From Candidatus Methanomethylophilaceae archaeon (lineage in GTDB: Archaea > Thermoplasmatota > Thermoplasmata > Methanomassiliicoccales > Methanomethylophilaceae): DNA of 64,000 nt. Under the pieces are notes generated by a model. That model saw only the letters and a program-made list of their open reading frames with translations, was not told where the DNA came from and ran no database searches. Shown here piece by piece: positions 23,193-37,219 of the stretch. Position numbers and translations under genes: made by a program. The DNA is taken from contig JBMNHS010000001.1 in assembly GCA_050950505.1 (NCBI GenBank), positions 992,001 to 1,056,000 on the forward strand, written 5' to 3'. How positions within the stretch are numbered: the first letter of the stretch is position 1; each line of letters begins with the position of its first letter.

Positions 23193-24302
23193 TCACTTTA
23201 TCTCAGTCAGTTTGTATTCGGAAGAGCCGAAACCCATCTTTTTTGCATGTTCAAAGGTGCTTTGCCATCTTGTTTCGGGATGGATGCAGGCAAACATGTC
23301 TTCGGGAACCTTGTGGCCGCATTTTTCGTACAATGCGCTGCCTATGACCGGCGGCTGCTTAAGGGCCAAATCAATGCAGGCTTTGTCCAAAGCCACGGGA
23401 TCGAAAGACGCCAGCATTCCCACGTCGGGAATCACCGGCGTGTCGTTCTCGGAATGGCAATCGCAGTATGGCGAGACATCCGTCATCACGGTGATGTGGA
23501 AATGGGGTTTGTCCTTGACGGCCGCCATGGCGTATTCAACTATCTTGGCGTTCAATATTTCGGCGTCCTCGTCGTTTTCAGCACTTATGGCGTCATAAAG
23601 ACAGGCGCCGATGCATCTTCCGCATCCGACACACTCATTATAGTCGATGACGGCTTTCTTTTCAATCAGGGTTATGGCATTCTGAGCGCAGTATTTCATA
23701 CACTTTCCGCATCCGACGCATTCTTCCGGATCCACGGAAGGTTTGCCCGCGGCATGCATTTCCATCTTTCCGCGGCGTGACGCACATCCCATGGAGATGT
23801 TCTTCAACGCACCTCCGAATCCTGTCAGTTCGTGGCATTTGAAGTGGGACAGGGTTACGAGTATGTCCGCATCATGAATCGCTCTCCCAATTTTCGCGGT
23901 TTTGACGTATTCGCCGTCAATGGGAATTTCAACTTCGTCGGTGCCTTTCAGACCGTCTCCGATGATTATCTGACAGCCCGCGGACATCCTGTTGAATCCG
24001 TTGTAATTGGCGGTGTCCAAGTGTTCCGGGGCGGTTTTTCGGTTTCCGACGTACAGTGTGTTGCAATCGGTCAGGAAAGGAATGCCTCCGTTGTTTCTGA
24101 CTTCTTCCGCTATTACCCGGGGAAATCCCGGTCTCAGATACGCAAGGTTTCCCAACTCCCCGAAATGCATTTTGATCGCAACGAACTTCTTGTCGCAATC
24201 CATGTTTCCGAATCCGGCTTTAAGCATCAGTCTGCGGAACTTATCGGGTATCGTGTCTCCGATCTCGGCTCGCATGTCGGTAAAGAAAACTTCGGATGCC
24301 AT
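23193..24302 (-). CDS. DUF362-type Fe-S protein with 2x[4Fe-4S] insert
   Basis: KMHFGE, TDCNTLY, SHFKCH..GFGGALKN, two CxxCxxCxxxC motifs, CDC, DPVALD. Confidence 0.85.
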   Translation of the reverse strand: MASEVFFTDMRAEIGDTIPDKFRRLMLKAGFGNMDCDKKFVAIKMHFGELGNLAYLRPGFPRVIAEEVRNNGGIPFLTDCNTLYVGNRKTAPEHLDTANYNGFNRMSAGCQIIIGDGLKGTDEVEIPIDGEYVKTAKIGRAIHDADILVTLSHFKCHELTGFGGALKNISMGCASRRGKMEMHAAGKPSVDPEECVGCGKCMKYCAQNAITLIEKKAVIDYNECVGCGRCIGACLYDAISAENDEDAEILNAKIVEYAMAAVKDKPHFHITVMTDVSPYCDCHSENDTPVIPDVGMLASFDPVALDKACIDLALKQPPVIGSALYEKCGHKVPEDMFACIHPETRWQSTFEHAKKMGFGSSEYKLTEIK

Positions 24303-24552: not shown

Positions 24553-24978
24553 ATGTACACAATGAGTCCCTATTCCGGAAAGCTTCTCGACGATAAAGAA
24601 GCCATAGAAAAATATAACGCCGAGAAGCAGTGGGGCCTTCTCGTTTCCGTCGATTTGGGCGGTTGCGACCACGATAAAATATCCAGCAAAGATCACATCA
24701 CGCAGTTTGCCGTGGATCTTGCCAAACACATCGATATGAAAAGATACGGGGAACCTCAGGTGGTCTTCTTCGGCGATGAGCCCAAAGTACAAGGGTATTC
24801 TTTGGTTCAGCTGATAGAAACCTCGATGATTTCCGGTCACTTCGCCGAAGACACCGACCGTGCATTCATCGACATATTTTCCTGCAAGGAATTCGGCCCC
24901 AAAGACGCCGCCGAATTTTCCCAAAAGTTTTTCGGTGCCGAAAAAATGGAATACTCCGTCTCTTTCAGAGACATATGA
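24553..24978 (+). CDS. speD: S-adenosylmethionine decarboxylase proenzyme (pyruvoyl type)
   Basis: GYSLVQLIET-SMISGHF self-cleavage region; IDIFSCKEF; GGAGG RBS. Confidence 0.8.
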   Translation: MYTMSPYSGKLLDDKEAIEKYNAEKQWGLLVSVDLGGCDHDKISSKDHITQFAVDLAKHIDMKRYGEPQVVFFGDEPKVQGYSLVQLIETSMISGHFAEDTDRAFIDIFSCKEFGPKDAAEFSQKFFGAEKMEYSVSFRDI

Positions 24979-24988
24979 AACTTCAATT

Positions 24989-25008
24989 CCCCTCTCCTGC
25001 GAGAGGGG
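24989..25008. terminator. Hairpin between convergent speD and the Fe-S gene
   Basis: CCCCTCTC-CTGC-GAGAGGGG, with T tracts downstream. Confidence 0.6.
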
Positions 25009-25039
25009 TATTCTTATCCCACGATTTTTTATTTTTCAA

Positions 25040-25732
25040 TCAAAGTCTGTTCAGCGGACAGGCTTTCAGGCATAATCCGCATCTCAGCCCTTCCAGAGTT
25101 TTGAACATGTAATCCCTGCATGCGAATTTTTCAATCGTTCCGTCTTCCCCTATGGCTCCGACGGGACAGACTTCCACGCATATGTTGCAATCTTTGCAGA
25201 GATCGCTGATGAATTTTGTTTCATGGGATTCGTGAGGAATTTCCAGGTCCGTGAGAATGGCGATGATTCTGACCCTGGGGCCGTATTCCGGAGTTATTAT
25301 CAGATGGTTTGTCCCATAGGAACCCATTCCGGCGCACTATACCGCCCACTTTATTGAAAGGTTGGCAAGCAATGTTTCTTTGTCGGCGTACCAATAACCG
25401 AACTCGCTTCCTTCGTTGGGAACGATACTGGCCAAGAATCCCTTTTTTTCTATCCTTCTTGCGACTTTGTACGCTGCGACTCTGAGAAATGCCGTGGCGG
25501 ACATCAGCGTGTTCGTGTATTCCGCTCTGCCGGCCGGAAGAGGTTCAACCGCACCGTTGTGTACGGCTGCGGCCAACAACACCACGGATCGGATGTTTTC
25601 AAAAAAGTCCTGAGGTTTTTTTCCTGTATATTTTTCATCAAGGAAACAATTCGCATCGACAACGCCGAACAGATCCATTCCTTCGGCTTCGGCCAACTGT
25701 TTCAATTCGTTGAACAAAGTAATATCCGCCAT
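25040..25732 (-). CDS. QueG/reductive-dehalogenase-like 2x[4Fe-4S] protein with in-frame TAG at codon 132 (probable pyrrolysine read-through), 230 aa
   Basis: ORFs 25337-25732 and 25040-25327 share a frame, joined as SIKWAV-TAG-CAGMGSYGTNHLIITPEYGPRVR; C-terminal CKDCNICVEVCP and C..CGLCLKACP. Confidence 0.8.
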
Positions 25733-26055
25733 TTTTTCACTTTCCGCGTTTATTCATAGGATTATGCACCTTTAAACCGTTTATTCACCATTTAGACCAT
25801 ATGGGCCGGTTGACACAGGGACATGGATTGTCGTTGATATTATGATATTGAAGGAAATCAAAGAATTTACAATTGGCAAACTATATCCTCATTGTATATT
25901 TTCTATATCTCTTTATCACAATGGTATTTTCAACCATCCAGCAGTTATTTTTAACATAAGGTGATTAGTAACCATATTTATCCTAATTGTATTGGATAAT
26001 CCTTATTGTGATAATTTTAGAAACCTATATATTTACCGAGGACGTCGCGTTGTAT

Positions 26056-28973: not shown

Positions 28974-30593
28974 TCACGCAAGTTTGAGGGTGTCGAATTT
29001 CATGACCTTTTCAGGGCAGGCGTACTGACACCTGTAGCAGGCGGTGCCGAGACAGTTCTTGGTCATCACGGTGATGGTCTTGTCTTTGGAGACGGTGAGT
29101 GCGTTCTCCGGACATTCCCTCTCGCAGGCTTTGCAGCCCGTGCAGCCGTCCATTTTGCCGACCAGATCCGTTCCGAGATCGTGCAGTATATGCAATCCTC
29201 TTTCTCCCAAATCGGCGATGTCACGTTTGGATATCCTTATGATTTTGGGCACCCCCCTCGGACGGGGTATGGTCTGTCTTCCGGTCATTTCAAGATTTTC
29301 GTTGTACGTGAACATACTCATGCCCTCTTCGCAGTGGGCGAGTTCCTGAACGTAAATGTCTTCGAAGACAGGGTCTCCGGCGAACATCACGTGGTTTGCG
29401 CGTATGTCGTTGGCGACGGACTGAAGTTCATCCAGCATTTCGGGATTCATCAACAAATCTGTGGCCAAAGCCAACGAGGTGTTTCCGTACTGATAGATGG
29501 TATTGCAGGTGGGCGGAAGCATTCCTATTTCCCTGGCTTTTATGGCATCCACATAGGTACCGGAAGCTCCGGTCATGTACATGGTTTTCAAATCATCGAA
29601 TTTGATTCCAGCATGTTCTATGAGGGTGTAGTGACCCGCCCTCATGGCACCTACGGCCTTCATTGCTTCAACAATATCTTCGGTGGTAATGTATACTCCG
29701 TCCTGCAGGTGCATTTTGCCGTCCGGAGTATGCAATTTGCTTTTTCTGAACAGTCCCGTTTGCTTGGCGACGGCAATCGCGGCTATGACTCCGGTACCCG
29801 TGATTCCTTTGGCTTTGCCGTGCATGGGTCCGTATTCATCTGCGGTTCCGAGAATGAAATCGAATTTGTCCCCGTTCTGAGGCATCAGATTTTCATCCAA
29901 AACTTTGCAAATCCATTGGAAATCATATTCAAGATCGCTTATTGCACCGGGAGCCGCCAACATTCCGTGTTTTATGGACTGACCCTCCATAGCGGGACCT
30001 GCGGCCGCAGATCCGGTATATATTTCGTCGCCGACTTTGAGAGCCATTTCCGCATTGGTTCCGTAATCGGTAACGAGGCAGGTTTCTTTCTCTTCAAGGA
30101 AACCGCTTTTGTACATCATCGCCAAAGCATCGGCACCTATTTCGTGCCGGATTGCGGGAGGCACGTAAAGTTCGGTTCCGTCGGGAACTTCGATGCCGTA
30201 TTCCACGGGATCGAAAACGCCCGCGTCACGTTTCTGTTCAACAATTCCTTTCACTCTTCTGGCGTTTTCTCCCGCAAAGGCAAGATCGTCAATAGGTATG
30301 TTTTGCGCAATCGACAATTGTATCGGATTTCCGCACAAACTCATTCTGACAACGTCCTTGAGGTCTATTCCCAAGGTTTTGATCAATTTGTTCACCGTGT
30401 CGATTGCGACACCGTGGGCCACGTCAAGTCCGACTCTTATGCTGAAGGTCAGGTGGTCCATAATGTTGGCACCCGGCAGCGGATGACATTCCGTGATGGA
30501 GGTTGAAATTATTTTTTTGTTTTTTAAATCAACTGCGTGTGCACGGAACCCGCTAGTTCCTAGGTCCAATGATATTCCGTATTCCATAGACAT
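28974..30593 (-). CDS. ramA: ATP-dependent corrinoid protein reductive activase (RamA/RamM family)
   Basis: LDLGTSGFR, HPLPGANIMDHL, IRHEIGADALAM, TDYGTNAEM, GSAAAGPA; C-terminal 2x[4Fe-4S]; divergent from mtaC. Confidence 0.9.
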   Translation of the reverse strand: MSMEYGISLDLGTSGFRAHAVDLKNKKIISTSITECHPLPGANIMDHLTFSIRVGLDVAHGVAIDTVNKLIKTLGIDLKDVVRMSLCGNPIQLSIAQNIPIDDLAFAGENARRVKGIVEQKRDAGVFDPVEYGIEVPDGTELYVPPAIRHEIGADALAMMYKSGFLEEKETCLVTDYGTNAEMALKVGDEIYTGSAAAGPAMEGQSIKHGMLAAPGAISDLEYDFQWICKVLDENLMPQNGDKFDFILGTADEYGPMHGKAKGITGTGVIAAIAVAKQTGLFRKSKLHTPDGKMHLQDGVYITTEDIVEAMKAVGAMRAGHYTLIEHAGIKFDDLKTMYMTGASGTYVDAIKAREIGMLPPTCNTIYQYGNTSLALATDLLMNPEMLDELQSVANDIRANHVMFAGDPVFEDIYVQELAHCEEGMSMFTYNENLEMTGRQTIPRPRGVPKIIRISKRDIADLGERGLHILHDLGTDLVGKMDGCTGCKACERECPENALTVSKDKTITVMTKNCLGTACYRCQYACPEKVMKFDTLKLA

Positions 30594-30951
30594 ATCCCCG
30601 GTAACGCAATATTGACTCTGAAGGTTGATAATAGGTTCTATGAAAAACATCTTCGGTTCCCGTAATGGTAATTTCACGGAGGCTGAGATTTATTTTGATG
30701 AATTACGTCAAACGTAGAAAATGCCTTGAGAACTACTTTTATATACAAAGATAATACCAAATTGTAATTTTTAAAATTACAGACCTGTTAATTTCTATTA
30801 AAATAAATTTTAGAAAAAATAGTTTTGAAACGGCGCAATTCAGTTTTTAATTATTACTGGCTATGTATTCAAACACACCCCTCGTTGTTGGAATACGAAG
30901 GATCGATATTAATTTTTGAAGTTCAATTTTGACACGAACTTCTGTATCTTC

Positions 30952-31037: not shown

Positions 31038-31823
31038 ATGTTAGACAGCAAAGGAGTAGACTTCGGCATGATTCTCAGACGGTACGACGTCGAACTCGAG
31101 GTTGAGGCCACCCCTGAGGAAATGGCAAAGAGCCTGCTTCCCAAAGACCCTATTTTCAAAAAGGTCGCGGAAGAGGTTCTGTACATGAAGTTGAAAACGG
31201 TTATTCCTACTGTAACGGAGGCACTGAAGGAGAAAGACCCTTTGAAGGTTATCAACGAAGGTCTCGTAGTGGGAATGGAAATTGTGTCAAAACTGTACTC
31301 GGAACATGTGTATTACCTGCCTGAAATAATGATGGCGGCAAAAACCATGGAAATGGGGATAGCTTTGGCAGAGAAACAGCTGGAAGGCGGAAAGATGAAG
31401 ATGAAGGCCGATGTGATCATGCACACCGCCGAAGGTGACGTGCACGACATCGGAAAGAACATTGCGGTCATCATGACCCGCGCCGCAGGTTATGAAGTCA
31501 TCGACATGGGTAAGGACGTACCCGTCGACGATGTTGTGGCCAAGACGGTAGAAGTCAAACCGCTCTTCGTATCGGGTACCGCATTGATGACAACCACAAT
31601 GTCTGCATTCCCGAGGATTGCCGCGAAATACGTGGAGAAGGGACTCAAGACCCCCTTCATGGGTTGCGGCGGTGCTGTGAACAGGGAGTATTCCAACTCT
31701 TACGACCTGGGAATATATTCGGATAAAGCGTCTCAGACCCCGCTCATCGCGGAAAAGCTGCTCTCCGGATATGACTGGAAGAAGGTCAGGGAAGAGTGGG
31801 ACAGCATTGTGAGAGGTGAGTGA
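31038..31823 (+). CDS. mtaC: Methanol corrinoid protein, copy 1
   Basis: GDVHDIGKN B12-binding motif; SGTALMTTTM; GGAV; upstream of mtaB. Confidence 0.92.
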   Translation: MLDSKGVDFGMILRRYDVELEVEATPEEMAKSLLPKDPIFKKVAEEVLYMKLKTVIPTVTEALKEKDPLKVINEGLVVGMEIVSKLYSEHVYYLPEIMMAAKTMEMGIALAEKQLEGGKMKMKADVIMHTAEGDVHDIGKNIAVIMTRAAGYEVIDMGKDVPVDDVVAKTVEVKPLFVSGTALMTTTMSAFPRIAAKYVEKGLKTPFMGCGGAVNREYSNSYDLGIYSDKASQTPLIAEKLLSGYDWKKVREEWDSIVRGE

Positions 31824-31824
31824 A

Positions 31825-33222
31825 ATGTCGGTAAAAAGATACACGAAAATGGCTTATGACAACGCCGATGATTTGATATTCGGACGCGCTAAGCACCCCA
31901 TATCCTACGGATACGGAATAAAATTGGGTGCGGGCAAAGTCATAACCGAAATCAACTATGCGCCCCGTCCGGGAACGGAAAAAGATCCCGCAACCCTAAG
32001 AAGGGAGTATGTTGACTATATCTGCAAGGACGCACTCGACAGAGCGATATCCATCGGACTTCCCGACCTTCAGATGGAAACCGAATGGATTTCGCAGATG
32101 AGCGAAGCAAGAATATCGATACCTGTCGTCGAAGGACAGAGGGAAATCGCAGAGAAATACCACGAAGAATACGGTATAAACACCGCTGTCAGACACACCA
32201 TCCCCGACAAGCGCGACACCGATCACGGAATGCGCGTCGGTCAGGATAAAGTCAACGGCGGACCCGAAATGCTCTTCGAATCCGCGGAAATCGCCTGTGA
32301 GAACGGTGCACACGTGTTCTCGGTCGAATCCATGGGAGGAAAGGAACTGGCGGACTATGCCATCACCAACGGTGACATTATCGCTTTCCTTTTCGGAGTG
32401 GGCTATCTCGGATCCATCGATATGACTAACATCTGGCAGGAATTCGTCAAGATTTGTAAGAAGAACAACGTTATCCCCGGAGGAGACACAAACTGTTCCG
32501 GAGCCAACACCTCCATGTTCATGGCGGGCGGTTACTTGGACAACGATGTTCAGAGGACATTCTCTGCGATAACCAGGGCCATCGCTTCCGCGAGAACCGT
32601 GGTTGCGTGGGAATGCGGTGCCGTCGGACCCGACAAGGACTGCGGTTACGAAGGACCCATATGCAAAGCGATTGGGGGCAACCCAACATCTCAGGAAGGA
32701 AAACAGTGTCACTGCGCACACTGCGACATCCAGAGCAACCTGATGGCCTCCACCTGCGACCTTTGGTCCAACGAGTCCGTGGAATACCACCCCGAATTCG
32801 GAGGTTCCTCGGTACAGTGCTGGCTTGCAACCCTCGGAAACGAAGTTATGCTGATGAACACCTCTATCCAGTTCAAGCAGGACAAAGTCCTTAGGGACCT
32901 GTACATGAACGCGGACAGAATCAGAGGGCCTGAGGCATACATTCTCGCTTACGACCACGCATTCGAAATCGGTAAAGCAATCACTGAAAACGGTGACAAT
33001 CTTTATCTCCGTGCGAAGGCCGCCGGTGAGACCGCAGCCAACATAATCCTCAGAGGATACAAGTCCAAGGAACTGCCCCTCACGAGGAAGCAGCTCACTG
33101 TTCTGGAAGACTGCATCAAGCAGTTTGAAGCGCTTCCGGACAACGAGGACGCTTTCGTTGAGATGTGCCTTGAGAAATACAAGGACGTCCCGATGTTCCA
33201 TAAGAACAACTACGGACTCTGA
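31825..33222 (+). CDS. mtaB: Methanol:corrinoid methyltransferase, copy 1
   Basis: KRYTKMAY..ADDLIFG, EINYAPRP, SVESMGGKE, GDTNC, GPDKDCGYE, DLWSNESVE. Confidence 0.95.
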   Translation: MSVKRYTKMAYDNADDLIFGRAKHPISYGYGIKLGAGKVITEINYAPRPGTEKDPATLRREYVDYICKDALDRAISIGLPDLQMETEWISQMSEARISIPVVEGQREIAEKYHEEYGINTAVRHTIPDKRDTDHGMRVGQDKVNGGPEMLFESAEIACENGAHVFSVESMGGKELADYAITNGDIIAFLFGVGYLGSIDMTNIWQEFVKICKKNNVIPGGDTNCSGANTSMFMAGGYLDNDVQRTFSAITRAIASARTVVAWECGAVGPDKDCGYEGPICKAIGGNPTSQEGKQCHCAHCDIQSNLMASTCDLWSNESVEYHPEFGGSSVQCWLATLGNEVMLMNTSIQFKQDKVLRDLYMNADRIRGPEAYILAYDHAFEIGKAITENGDNLYLRAKAAGETAANIILRGYKSKELPLTRKQLTVLEDCIKQFEALPDNEDAFVEMCLEKYKDVPMFHKNNYGL

Positions 33223-35034: not shown

Positions 35035-35820
35035 ATGCTAAGCAATAAAGGCGTAGATTATGGCATGATCCTCAAAAGGTACGATATCGACCTTCAGGTC
35101 GAAATCACACCTGAGGAAAGAGCCAAAAGCATGCTACCCGAAGACCCGGTTTTCAGAAAGGTTGCCGAAGAAGTCTTGTACATGAGGTTGAAGACTGTTG
35201 TCCCGACCGTCGTTGAGGCTTTGAAAGAACGAGACCCCCTCGATGTCATCAACGAAGGGTTGGTTGCCGGTATGGAAATCGTTTCAAAACTTTACGCAGA
35301 GCACGTCTATTATCTGCCCGAAATTATGATGGCCGCCAAAGCCATGGAAATCGGAACCGCCCTTGCCGAGAAGAACCTCGAAGGCGGAAAGATGAAGATG
35401 AAGGCCGATGTGATCATGCACACCGCCGAAGGTGACGTGCACGACATCGGAAAGAACATCGCGGTCATCATGACCCGCGCCGCAGGTTACGAGATTATCG
35501 ATATGGGTAAAGATGTCCCTGTTGACGACGTTGTCGCCAAAGCCGAGGAAGTCAAACCCCTGTTCGTTTCCGGAACCGCACTGATGACAACCACAATGTC
35601 TGCATTCCCGAGAATCGCCGCCAAGTTCGTTGAGAAGGGACTCGAGATACCCCTCATGGGCTGCGGTGGAGCTGTGAACAGAGACTATTCCAACTCCTAC
35701 GATCTCGGAATCTATTCTGACAAAGCATCCCAGACTCCGCTCATTGCGGAAAAGTTGCTCTCCGGATATGACTGGAAGAAAGTCAGGGAAGAATGGGACA
35801 ACATCGTGAGAGGTGAGTGA
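35035..35820 (+). CDS. mtaC: Methanol corrinoid protein, copy 2
   Basis: Colinear paralog of 31038-31823 (offset 3997); GDVHDIGKN. Confidence 0.92.
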   Translation: MLSNKGVDYGMILKRYDIDLQVEITPEERAKSMLPEDPVFRKVAEEVLYMRLKTVVPTVVEALKERDPLDVINEGLVAGMEIVSKLYAEHVYYLPEIMMAAKAMEIGTALAEKNLEGGKMKMKADVIMHTAEGDVHDIGKNIAVIMTRAAGYEIIDMGKDVPVDDVVAKAEEVKPLFVSGTALMTTTMSAFPRIAAKFVEKGLEIPLMGCGGAVNRDYSNSYDLGIYSDKASQTPLIAEKLLSGYDWKKVREEWDNIVRGE

Positions 35821-35821
35821 A

Positions 35822-37219
35822 ATGTCTATAAAAAGATACACAAAAATGGCTTATGACAACCCCGACGATTTGATATTCGGACGCGCTAAGCACCCCATAT
35901 CCTACGGATACGGAATAAAATTGGGTGCGGGCAAAGTCATAACCGAAATCAACTATGCGCCCCGTCCCGGTACGGAAAAGGATGCAAAGACTCTGACAAG
36001 GGAATATGTTGATTACATCAGCAAAGACGCACTTGACAGGGCAATATCCATCGGACTTCCCGACCTTCAGTTGGAAACCGAATGGGTTTCGCAGATGAGC
36101 GAAGCGAAAATCTCAGCACCCGTTGTCGAAGGACAGAGGGAAATCACTGAGAGATACCACGAAGAATACGGTATCAACACAGCAGTCAGACACACCATCC
36201 CCGACAAGCGTGACACCGACAACGGTATGCGCGTCGGTCAGGACAAAGTCAACGGCGGACCCGAAATGCTTTTCGAATCCGCTGAAATTGCCTGTGAAAA
36301 CGGTGCAGATGTGTTCTCCGTCGAATCCATCGGCGGAAAAGAAATGGCAGACTTTGCTATCACCAACGGTGACATCGTAGCTTTCCTTTTCGGAGTCGGT
36401 TATCTCGGATCTCTCGACATGACCTACATCTGGCCTGAATTCGTCGACATATGCAAGAAGAACAACGTTATCCCCGGAGGAGACACAAACTGCTCCGGAG
36501 CCAACACCTCCATGTTCATGGCGGGCGGCTACTTGGACAACGATGTTCAGAGGACCTTCTCCGCAATCACCAGGGCAATCTCGGCCGCAAGAACCGTTGT
36601 TGCTTGGGAATGCGGTGCCGTCGGACCCGACAAGGACTGCGGTTACGAAGGACCCATCTGTAAAGCCATTGCGGGTAAGCCCACATCTCAGGAAGGAAAA
36701 CAGTGTCACTGCGCACACTGCGACATCCAGAGCAACCTGATGGCCTCCACCTGCGACCTTTGGTCCAACGAGTCCGTGGAATACCACCCCGAATTCGGAG
36801 GTTCCTCGGTACAGTGCTGGCTTGCAACCCTCGGAAACGAAGTTATGCTGATGAACACCTCCATTCAGTTCAACCAGGACAAAGTCCTCAGAGATCTGTA
36901 TATGCAGGCTGACAGGGTCAGAGGCCCCGAAGCATACATCCTCGCTTACGACCACGCATTCGAAATCGGTAAAGCAATCACCGAAAACGGTGACGACCTC
37001 TACCTCCGTGCGAAGGCCGCCGGTGAGACCGCAGCCAACATAATCCTCAGAGGATACAAGTCCAAGGAACTGCTCCTTACCAGGAAGCAGCTCACTGTTT
37101 TGGAAGACAGCATCAAGCAGTTTGAAGCGCTTCCGGACAACGAGGACGCTTTCGTTGAGATGTGCCTTGAGAAATACAAGGACGTCCCGATGTTCCACAA
37201 GAACAACTACGGATTCTGA
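35822..37219 (+). CDS. mtaB: Methanol:corrinoid methyltransferase, copy 2
   Basis: Colinear paralog of mtaB1 with the same Glu/Cys/Cys motifs. Confidence 0.95.
   Translation: MSIKRYTKMAYDNPDDLIFGRAKHPISYGYGIKLGAGKVITEINYAPRPGTEKDAKTLTREYVDYISKDALDRAISIGLPDLQLETEWVSQMSEAKISAPVVEGQREITERYHEEYGINTAVRHTIPDKRDTDNGMRVGQDKVNGGPEMLFESAEIACENGADVFSVESIGGKEMADFAITNGDIVAFLFGVGYLGSLDMTYIWPEFVDICKKNNVIPGGDTNCSGANTSMFMAGGYLDNDVQRTFSAITRAISAARTVVAWECGAVGPDKDCGYEGPICKAIAGKPTSQEGKQCHCAHCDIQSNLMASTCDLWSNESVEYHPEFGGSSVQCWLATLGNEVMLMNTSIQFNQDKVLRDLYMQADRVRGPEAYILAYDHAFEIGKAITENGDDLYLRAKAAGETAANIILRGYKSKELLLTRKQLTVLEDSIKQFEALPDNEDAFVEMCLEKYKDVPMFHKNNYGF

Follow-up and report, generated by a model that had tools for sequence, protein, structure and literature searches.

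The closest described relatives of the gene considered here, in terms of coding, are ordinary proteins of Methanomassiliicoccales that carry pyrrolysine (Pyl) at an in-frame TAG (amber) codon. For Candidatus (Ca.) M. alvus, in which 1.6% of stops are TAG, 16 Pyl proteins other than methyltransferases were predicted, and it was argued that an in-frame amber is a stable mutation in such a background (Borrel 2014, PMC4153887). The same study predicted an amber-containing "putative Fe-S binding protein" in Ca. Methanomassiliicoccus intestinalis (AGY50215). The gene in question lies on the minus strand at positions 25040 to 25732 of a 64,000-nucleotide stretch, the window, taken from the genome of a Candidatus Methanomethylophilaceae archaeon (G000:C1:992001-1056000; the genome measures 1.33 Mb, has 48.8% G+C and is 99.6% complete). 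Its frame is interrupted by a single TAG at codon 132. The reading favored here, and one that is very likely correct, is that this is an intact, functional gene whose UAG-132 is translated as Pyl by the organism's own PylRS and tRNA-Pyl(CUA), and whose product has the RdhA/QueG/CblC fold.

A broader picture of such proteins has since emerged. Kivenson 2024 (bioRxiv 10.1101/2024.09.30.615893) proposed Genetic Code 34 and listed 1903 predicted Pyl proteins, nearly all of them found in one genome or genus and maybe neutral. According to the same preprint, mass spectrometry (MS) confirmed Pyl in 12 of the 15 predicted Pyl proteins that M. alvi expressed, and its account of M. alvi and M. burtonii gives no standard residue at TAG positions. 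M. acetivorans is described as reading UAG both ways, with long and short forms of the protein (Shalvarjian 2025, PMC12626013). The first-pass annotation of this DNA had treated Pyl outside the methylamine methyltransferases as the unusual feature, but that had already been published for this group (Borrel 2014; Kivenson 2024), and the gene fits the pattern published for low-TAG Methanomassiliicoccales, whose ordinary proteins can contain Pyl. Full-text literature searches turned up no Pyl-containing protein of the QueG or RdhA type. The main text of Kivenson 2024 does not name the protein family, which may be listed in its supplementary tables S9 and S10 or in those of Borrel 2014.

The gene is organized as follows.

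25040..25732, minus strand: the complete gene, with 230 codons and a TGA stop, a single open reading frame (ORF) once the TAG is read through
25337..25339, minus strand: the in-frame TAG, codon 132, the putative Pyl codon; Tyr (TAC/TAT) in orthologues
25340..25732, minus strand: residues 1-131, forming most of the predicted alpha/beta domain for cobalamin binding
25349..25351, minus strand: codon K128, on the predicted helix 127-133 and one turn ahead of the TAG residue
25040..25336, minus strand: residues 133-230 and the stop, covering AG(M/L)G, the last part of the cobalamin-type domain and a ferredoxin-like domain
25166..25198, minus strand: first [4Fe-4S] motif, CxxCxxCxxxCP, C179-C189, invariant in 31 sequences
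25058..25120, minus strand: cysteines of the second [4Fe-4S] cluster, C205, C218, C221 and C225, invariant in 31 sequences

At 25337-25339 the plus strand has CTA, hence TAG on the complementary minus strand. Translation table 11 yields two ORFs in the same minus-strand frame, 25337..25732 (131 amino acids, aa) and 25040..25327 (95 aa). When the TAG is read through, these become one ORF of 230 aa in which the sole odd codon is O132 (O for Pyl), in the context ...LSIKWAV-O-CAGMGSYGTNHLIITPEYGPR... The TAG is the sole interruption of the 230-codon frame; there is no second stop and no frameshift. All eight cluster cysteines (C179, C182, C185, C189, C205, C218, C221, and C225) lie 3' of it. In this respect the first-pass annotation was accurate: it had described two same-frame ORFs split by TAG only, both [4Fe-4S] motifs after the TAG and no other lesion.

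Is the TAG genuine? The stretch 24900-25900 is present in 20 listed public runs from 14 studies. At least half of its words are contained in 17 of these runs (6 of the 17 are possibly the source of the DNA), and nearly the whole stretch occurs in metagenomes labelled wastewater, anaerobic digester, bioreactor, landfill and manure. The codon was checked in contigs from four runs of four studies, X7, X10, and X16 (DNA) and X18 (an RNA library). It is covered in all four, with no alternative letter at 25337-25339. X7 differs nearby, where an A>G change at 25341 produces V131A, the residue also found in the congeneric species introduced below. A scan with a degenerate motif added two metagenome contigs, one carrying the identical gene including the TAG (L051) and the other a congener-type gene with one amino-acid difference and the TAG present (L052). 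A sequencing or assembly error is ruled out by these four sets of run contigs and two metagenome contigs. TAT or TAC at this codon would have spoken against the proposal, and the independent assemblies, compared as contigs, have TAG.

The strongest constraint on what happens beyond the TAG comes from a congener (G161), which has a colinear 230-codon gene, 77% identical, with TAG at the same codon. The two genes align gap-free over their full length. Before the TAG, aa identity is 0.79 and the nonsynonymous divergence (dN) 0.154, with synonymous divergence (dS) saturated. In the 98 codons after it, aa identity is 0.72, dN 0.171, dS 1.19 and their ratio (omega) 0.145, without an indel. These 98 codons are under purifying selection. 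They retain the eight Cys as well as the AG(L/M)G, GPRVR, and CP motifs. The codon-usage score is 0.28 before and 0.24 after the TAG; for comparison, in-frame scores average 0.24 and off-frame scores -0.34.

What if the TAG is simply a true stop, leaving either a pseudogene or a 131-aa product with the remainder untranslated? That is the default table 11 reading. Moreover, the gene is patchy, with an orthologue in 8 of the family's 174 genomes and in 2 of the 16 from the genus, and is therefore dispensable. However, the omega of 0.145, the kept cysteines and the coding-like codon usage together exclude a dead tail. With dS at ~1.2, the part past the TAG still has 72% aa identity, no indel and all eight Cys in both species, and codon usage is equally coding-like on either side of the codon. 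This makes a true stop highly improbable. Relaxed selection downstream had been named beforehand as a sign that the proposal was wrong; purifying selection was found instead.

The genome also encodes Pyl decoding. pylD, pylC, pylB, and pylS form one adjacent minus-strand cluster at C1:4851-8552, in which pylB, pylC, and pylD are contiguous (C1:4851-7841, minus strand). The PylRS catalytic domain (TIGR02367, G000:C1:7860-8552, minus strand) scores 267.1 bits against a cut-off of 178.15, with 438.3 against 348.2 for pylB, 315.3 against 248.3 for pylC and 217 against 150.05 for pylD. A 71-nt tRNA-Pyl (cta) is called at C1 c[8696,8766], ~20 nt upstream of the pylS ORF (ARAGORN -ps80). Its predicted fold is cloverleaf-like with CUA in the loop, and no other CUA tRNA was found among 41 tRNAs. 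All of pylT, pylS, pylB, pylC, and pylD are present, as the proposal presupposed.

Perhaps UAG-132 is read instead with a standard amino acid by a near-cognate tRNA (such as Tyr, Gln, or Lys). tRNA-Tyr is near-cognate to UAG, and Tyr occupies the site in most homologues. Against this stand the dedicated CUA tRNA and the complete pyl cluster, together with the data on M. alvi and M. burtonii, as presented by Kivenson 2024 (10.1101/2024.09.30.615893), where TAG positions gave no standard residue. Read-through of this type is extremely improbable.

One side observation concerns the pyl cluster itself. The pylB frame (C1:6696-7835, minus strand, locus L006/L002, outside the window) has a TAG at codon 350 of 379. 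This is either the stop or a Pyl codon followed by a 29-codon extension. Pyl or TAG in the PylB of other archaea is mentioned in the literature.

In addition, TAG is seldom used as a stop in this genome. Among 967 non-overlapping ORFs of at least 150 aa, 719 end in TGA, 229 in TAA and 19 (2.0%) in TAG, and 6 of these 19 are really internal TAGs. A survey of internal TAGs, in which a codon-usage filter was applied to 128 TAG-containing frames and then Pfam to nine candidates, placed the TAG within a Pfam domain match in seven of the nine genes; the remaining two have no Pfam hit. Three of the seven are the methyltransferases MtmB (O202), MtbB (O358), and MttB (O361). The others are a UbiA-family prenyltransferase of 281 aa (O85; locus L043, G000:C1:626552-627397, minus strand), an AAA_14/DUF4143 ATPase with two TAGs in the domain (O286 and O328), a ResIII/DUF3427 helicase (PLD/ResIII/DUF3427; O374) and a KAP-family NTPase (O281). 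With the gene at 25040-25732, the genome thus has at least five genes other than methyltransferases that contain an internal TAG. Rare TAG stops together with seven genes whose TAG is internal to a Pfam match correspond to Category 1 of Code 34 (internal TAGs flanked by homology on either side), and the gene described here is an eighth, its TAG lying between two stretches that are homologous to the orthologues.

Some of these other genes deserve a comment in their own right. The UbiA prenyltransferase may match the family of the predicted Pyl-containing digeranylgeranylglyceryl phosphate synthase of Ca. M. alvus (Borrel 2014). The AAA_14/DUF4143, KAP, and PLD/ResIII/DUF3427 genes (loci L042, L047, and L046, at G000:C1:223352-224713, 255191-257419, and 1138060-1140903) all resemble defense or mobile-element genes.

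Where else does the TAG at codon 132 occur? An orthologue (E below 1e-70) exists in 18 of 201 genomes of the order, and paralogues of ~30% identity in many more. Among the orthologue frames the TAG recurs only in the congener, which has pylS; a TAG or TGA flagged in G019, G035, and G051 is in each case the terminal stop. In the 16 TAG-free orthologues (alignment A1), column 132 is Tyr in 13 and Phe, His, or Arg in the rest, with TAC used eight times, TAT five times and TTC, CAC, and CGC once each. Tyr is also found in 10 of 13 paralogues, the rest having Val, Glu, or Met. Among 120 database homologues, collected with a TAG-free orthologue as query and counted without the two TAG genes, the column is aromatic in all 120 (Y103, F9, W5, and H3). 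A motif scan of one genome each for 185,579 species, possibly excluding the window's own, found the codon-132 TAG in one record only, that of the congener. Since the TAG is shared with the congener alone, the alignments indicate that the TAY->TAG change arose once, in an ancestor shared by these two species of one genus. The recurrence that the first-pass annotation had proposed to look for is thus found, within that narrow range.

Two orthologues stand somewhat apart. One (L018, G008:C5:162283-162954, minus strand) has Tyr at column 132 and was excluded from alignment A1 on account of an internal TGA near the N-terminus, at a position where the others have Gly (…VQA-TGA-ADLFG…); it may be a lesion or an error. 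The other (G158, locus L010) is the closest Tyr-bearing orthologue, at 62% identity. No pylS was detected in its genome at E up to 1e-20, but this genome is 91% complete, so absence is not established.

The same alignments bear on another explanation, in which the TAG stops one protein and translation restarts 9 nt later, at codon 136, with the 131-aa and 95-aa pieces assembling into a split enzyme. A start-type codon does follow soon after the TAG in both species (codon 136 is ATG here and TTG in the congener), table 11 yields the 95-aa ORF, and downstream selection fits equally well. However, the break would interrupt the motif that is most conserved in the protein and would cost it A134 (present in 112 of the 120 homologues) and G135 (in 118). 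Codons 133-135 match between the species at 8 of 9 nt, and the lone change is synonymous. Codon 136 is the L/M position of AG(L/M)G in all homologues (L99, M10, I10, and V1) and not a new start. Furthermore, the predicted fold runs unbroken over residues 127-147, and no split form was seen among 19 orthologous loci. A split gene is therefore very unlikely.

What kind of protein would read-through produce? Pfam detects 4Fe-4S (Fer4) families only, at residues 170-228, with no dehalogenase N-terminal domain among the hits. The scores for the curated families stay below their cut-offs, at 40.5 bits against 200 for QueG (TIGR00276, residues 131-209) and 49.5 against 160.35 for RdhA (TIGR02486, residues 125-199). 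A sequence search of the PDB retrieved PceA, QueG, and NpRdhA at E 3.5e-10 to 1e-6, and a profile search did so at 1e-21 to 1e-17. An AlphaFold2 model built on alignment A1 has a mean predicted local distance difference test (pLDDT) of 88.1 and a predicted template modeling score (pTM) of 0.87. With this model Foldseek matched PceA at E 1.8e-11 with a query-normalized TM-score (TMq) of 0.73-0.76, QueG at TMq 0.64-0.69 and NpRdhA at 0.69, each with probability 1.00, and more weakly the B12-trafficking protein CblC/MMACHC (E ~1e-4). The likeness to QueG and RdhA put forward in the first-pass annotation consequently holds for the predicted fold (TMq 0.64-0.76) and does not extend to membership of either curated family. 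Judged by the model, the protein is a minimal form of the reductase fold that combines cobalamin with two [4Fe-4S] clusters (RdhA/QueG, with a CblC-like core), and it would be expected to bind a cobamide.

The protein ends at residue 230, five residues past the last cluster cysteine. Homologues of ~228 aa are common in methanogens, including Methanoculleus, Methanosarcina, Methanosalsum, Methanolacinia, Methanofollis, and Methanomassiliicoccales, and they have been named automatically as "epoxyqueuosine reductase" or "4Fe-4S binding protein." The former name is probably wrong as a function, because queuosine is described as a bacterial and eukaryotic modification that is made by bacteria, while archaea carry archaeosine (PMC4646009).

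Several features help to place residue 132 within this fold. S126 is invariant in the alignment, and position 128 is basic in all 120 homologues (K106 and R14). By alignment K128 would correspond to Arg141 of BsQueG, and the QueG arginine is reported to sit under the corrin ring (PMC5175355); the QueG and PceA residue numbers used here are offsets from chain indices, unchecked on coordinates. Residue 132 is on the predicted helix 127-133, one turn beyond K128 and shortly ahead of AG(M/L)G, in a part of the predicted fold that shows no break (127-147). The likely active-site loop is a different one, the conserved EGSEFGYWYAD segment at residues 107-117, which has low pLDDT. The idea that the TAG replaces a catalytic Tyr was considered and rejected. 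The TAG column aligns with Glu in BsQueG, Lys in StQueG, Leu in NpRdhA and Val or a gap in PceA, and Tyr246 of PceA falls ~36 residues upstream of it.

Could Pyl-132 nevertheless be functional? The methyl-pyrroline ring might pack on the cobamide as the aromatic residue did, or its imine might contact the cofactor or substrate, and Pyl would then be selected. This is distinctly unlikely. If true, it would make this the first protein beyond the methylamine methyltransferases with Pyl tied to corrinoid chemistry and kept by selection. We infer instead that the change at codon 132 was neutral or nearly so.

How, then, might such a codon have arisen and persisted? In the proposed scenario, a third-base change turned a Tyr codon (TAC or TAT) into TAG in the ancestor of the two congeneric species. 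With TAG nearly gone as a stop, this change would have acted as a missense rather than a nonsense mutation, and it could for that reason have been tolerated and inherited. The product would be a 230-aa single-chain reductase with an N-terminal domain of the base-off-cobalamin type and a C-terminal two-[4Fe-4S] domain. By analogy, the two [4Fe-4S] clusters would pass low-potential electrons to the cobamide. Residue 132, on the K128-bearing helix just before AG(L/M)G, would lie outside the probable catalytic loop.

One aspect of the first-pass annotation concerned a small RNA hairpin starting 9 nt after the TAG. It is present as sequence, but folds no better than chance. The 106 nt from the TAG have a folding z of +0.44, and 132 of 200 shuffles fold as well. 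For the 75 nt past the codon, z is -1.3 and -0.9 in the two TAG genes versus -3.4 to +0.8 in 16 TAG-free orthologues. A read-through stem-loop resembling the pyrrolysine insertion sequence (PYLIS) was rejected, since shuffles and TAG-free orthologues fold comparably. PYLIS is not required for Pyl decoding according to Kivenson 2024 (bioRxiv 10.1101/2024.09.30.615893), so the absence of a TAG-specific RNA structure is expected.

This is relevant to the possibility of dual reading, in which UAG-132 is part stop and part Pyl, the ratio of full-length to 131-aa product tracks the supply of Pyl-tRNA, and the TAG is kept for that reason. M. acetivorans makes both long and short forms, and read-through that depends on supply and demand has been proposed there (PMC12626013). 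The TAG has also been retained in two species. However, TAG is very rare as a stop in the genome and no TAG-specific RNA structure accompanies it. Its confinement to one genus (one hit among 185,579 species' genomes besides its own) fits drift, and its retention is within neutral expectation. Dual reading maintained in this way is unlikely, if less so than the other alternatives. That full-length synthesis depends on Pyl supply, as the first-pass annotation suggested, is plausible by analogy.

Translation of UAG-132 as Pyl in an intact gene remains the preferred reading, and a number of points weigh against it. The residue inserted is most probably Pyl, an identity that is read from codon and gene content. 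Part of the product may be truncated, as with the dual reading of UAG in M. acetivorans (PMC12626013). The tRNA-Pyl was missed at the default threshold of ARAGORN and called at the relaxed threshold only, Rfam gave nothing on the pyl locus at E up to 1, and the fold energy of the tRNA is no better than that of shuffles. Site 132 is constrained, given an aromatic residue in 120 of 120 homologues; neutrality is assumed, and either a slight cost or a real role for Pyl is conceivable. Retention of the TAG in both species is uninformative, for under neutrality it has a chance of ~45-55% (a hand estimate from a three-state model). With odds that are roughly even, selective maintenance of the TAG is not demonstrable. 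Finally, the sole evidence at the RNA level is a single contig of low depth (2.04) across the TAG, from the X18 library. That library belongs to a study that is a possible source of the DNA, and it may contain DNA, so it is not counted as proof of transcription.

The first-pass annotation also described the gene as lying beside methanol corrinoid genes. It is alone on the minus strand, between a plus-strand S-adenosylmethionine (AdoMet)-decarboxylase-like gene and a plus-strand NMT1-type ATP-binding cassette (ABC) transporter. The corrinoid genes are found further along the window.

28974-30677, minus strand: RACo-type corrinoid activator with a Fer4 domain
31038-31823: MtaC
35035-35820: second MtaC
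35813-37219: MtaB

The RACo, mtaC, and mtaB genes start 3.2-10 kb from the gene, beyond the ABC transporter, and within ~1.5 kb no neighbor is common to more than 3 of 19 orthologous loci. "Beside" was thus a loose description, and in view of this distance and the lack of a conserved neighbor a link to the methanol genes is unsupported. Two other frames in the area may be mentioned. A long TAG-containing frame on the minus strand (31786-33201) scores weakly as coding sequence and probably just shadows a gene on the plus strand. A gene for a DUF362 protein with a two-[4Fe-4S] insert (23193-24302, minus strand) is 0.7 kb from the gene and on the same strand, and the AdoMet-decarboxylase-like gene separates the two.

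What does this locus add? To the catalogue of Pyl proteins it contributes a well-supported, evolutionarily retained site (two species, dS above 1, selection downstream), and the enzyme family concerned, of cobalamin/Fe-S type, is common in methanogens. The unusual point is that Pyl would replace an aromatic residue found in every database homologue counted (120 of 120), beside a cofactor-binding motif. There is also a consequence for annotation, in that standard gene callers split the gene into 131-aa and 95-aa ORFs labelled "hypothetical" or "ferredoxin."

Compared with characterized enzymes, the protein resembles QueG (PDB 5d08 and 5d6s) in having a cobalamin-type alpha/beta domain ahead of a ferredoxin domain with two [4Fe-4S] clusters. 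The two also have in common the S...(K/R)...AG(L/I/M)G motif and, at what would be the Arg141 position, a basic residue. However, QueG has ~375-385 aa rather than 230, and its C-terminal HEAT-like tRNA-binding domain (Leu257-Leu385 of BsQueG; PMC5175355) is missing here. The RdhA enzymes (PceA, 4ur0/8q4h; NpRdhA, 4ras) provide the best sequence and fold matches (phmmer 3.5e-10; TMq up to 0.76). Unlike them, the protein is half their size and without their extra regions, and the column in the region of the catalytic Tyr246 of PceA appears, from the alignment, to be variable in this family.

As for known or predicted Pyl proteins, a paralogue of the protein in another family (G006:C1, L039:656-1444, plus strand; 262 aa, about 26-31% identical, genome of 1.93 Mb) has its own in-frame TAG at another site (…PSMVY-O-ELYNTS…) and Tyr at column 132. 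It may or may not be AGY50215 of Ca. M. intestinalis. Thg1 of Methanosarcina acetivorans, in which Pyl is said to have arisen by neutral drift, is likewise a housekeeping-type enzyme with Pyl where its relatives have a standard residue, although it is another protein in another lineage. The closest parallel is with the Code 34 Pyl proteins of Methanomethylophilus and its relatives. Those are partly MS-confirmed, whereas the present one is predicted from sequence. In both cases the genome decodes Pyl, has TAG as ~2% of its stops and carries internal TAGs in several ordinary genes, and in both the site is restricted to one genus, with a standard residue elsewhere and no PYLIS.

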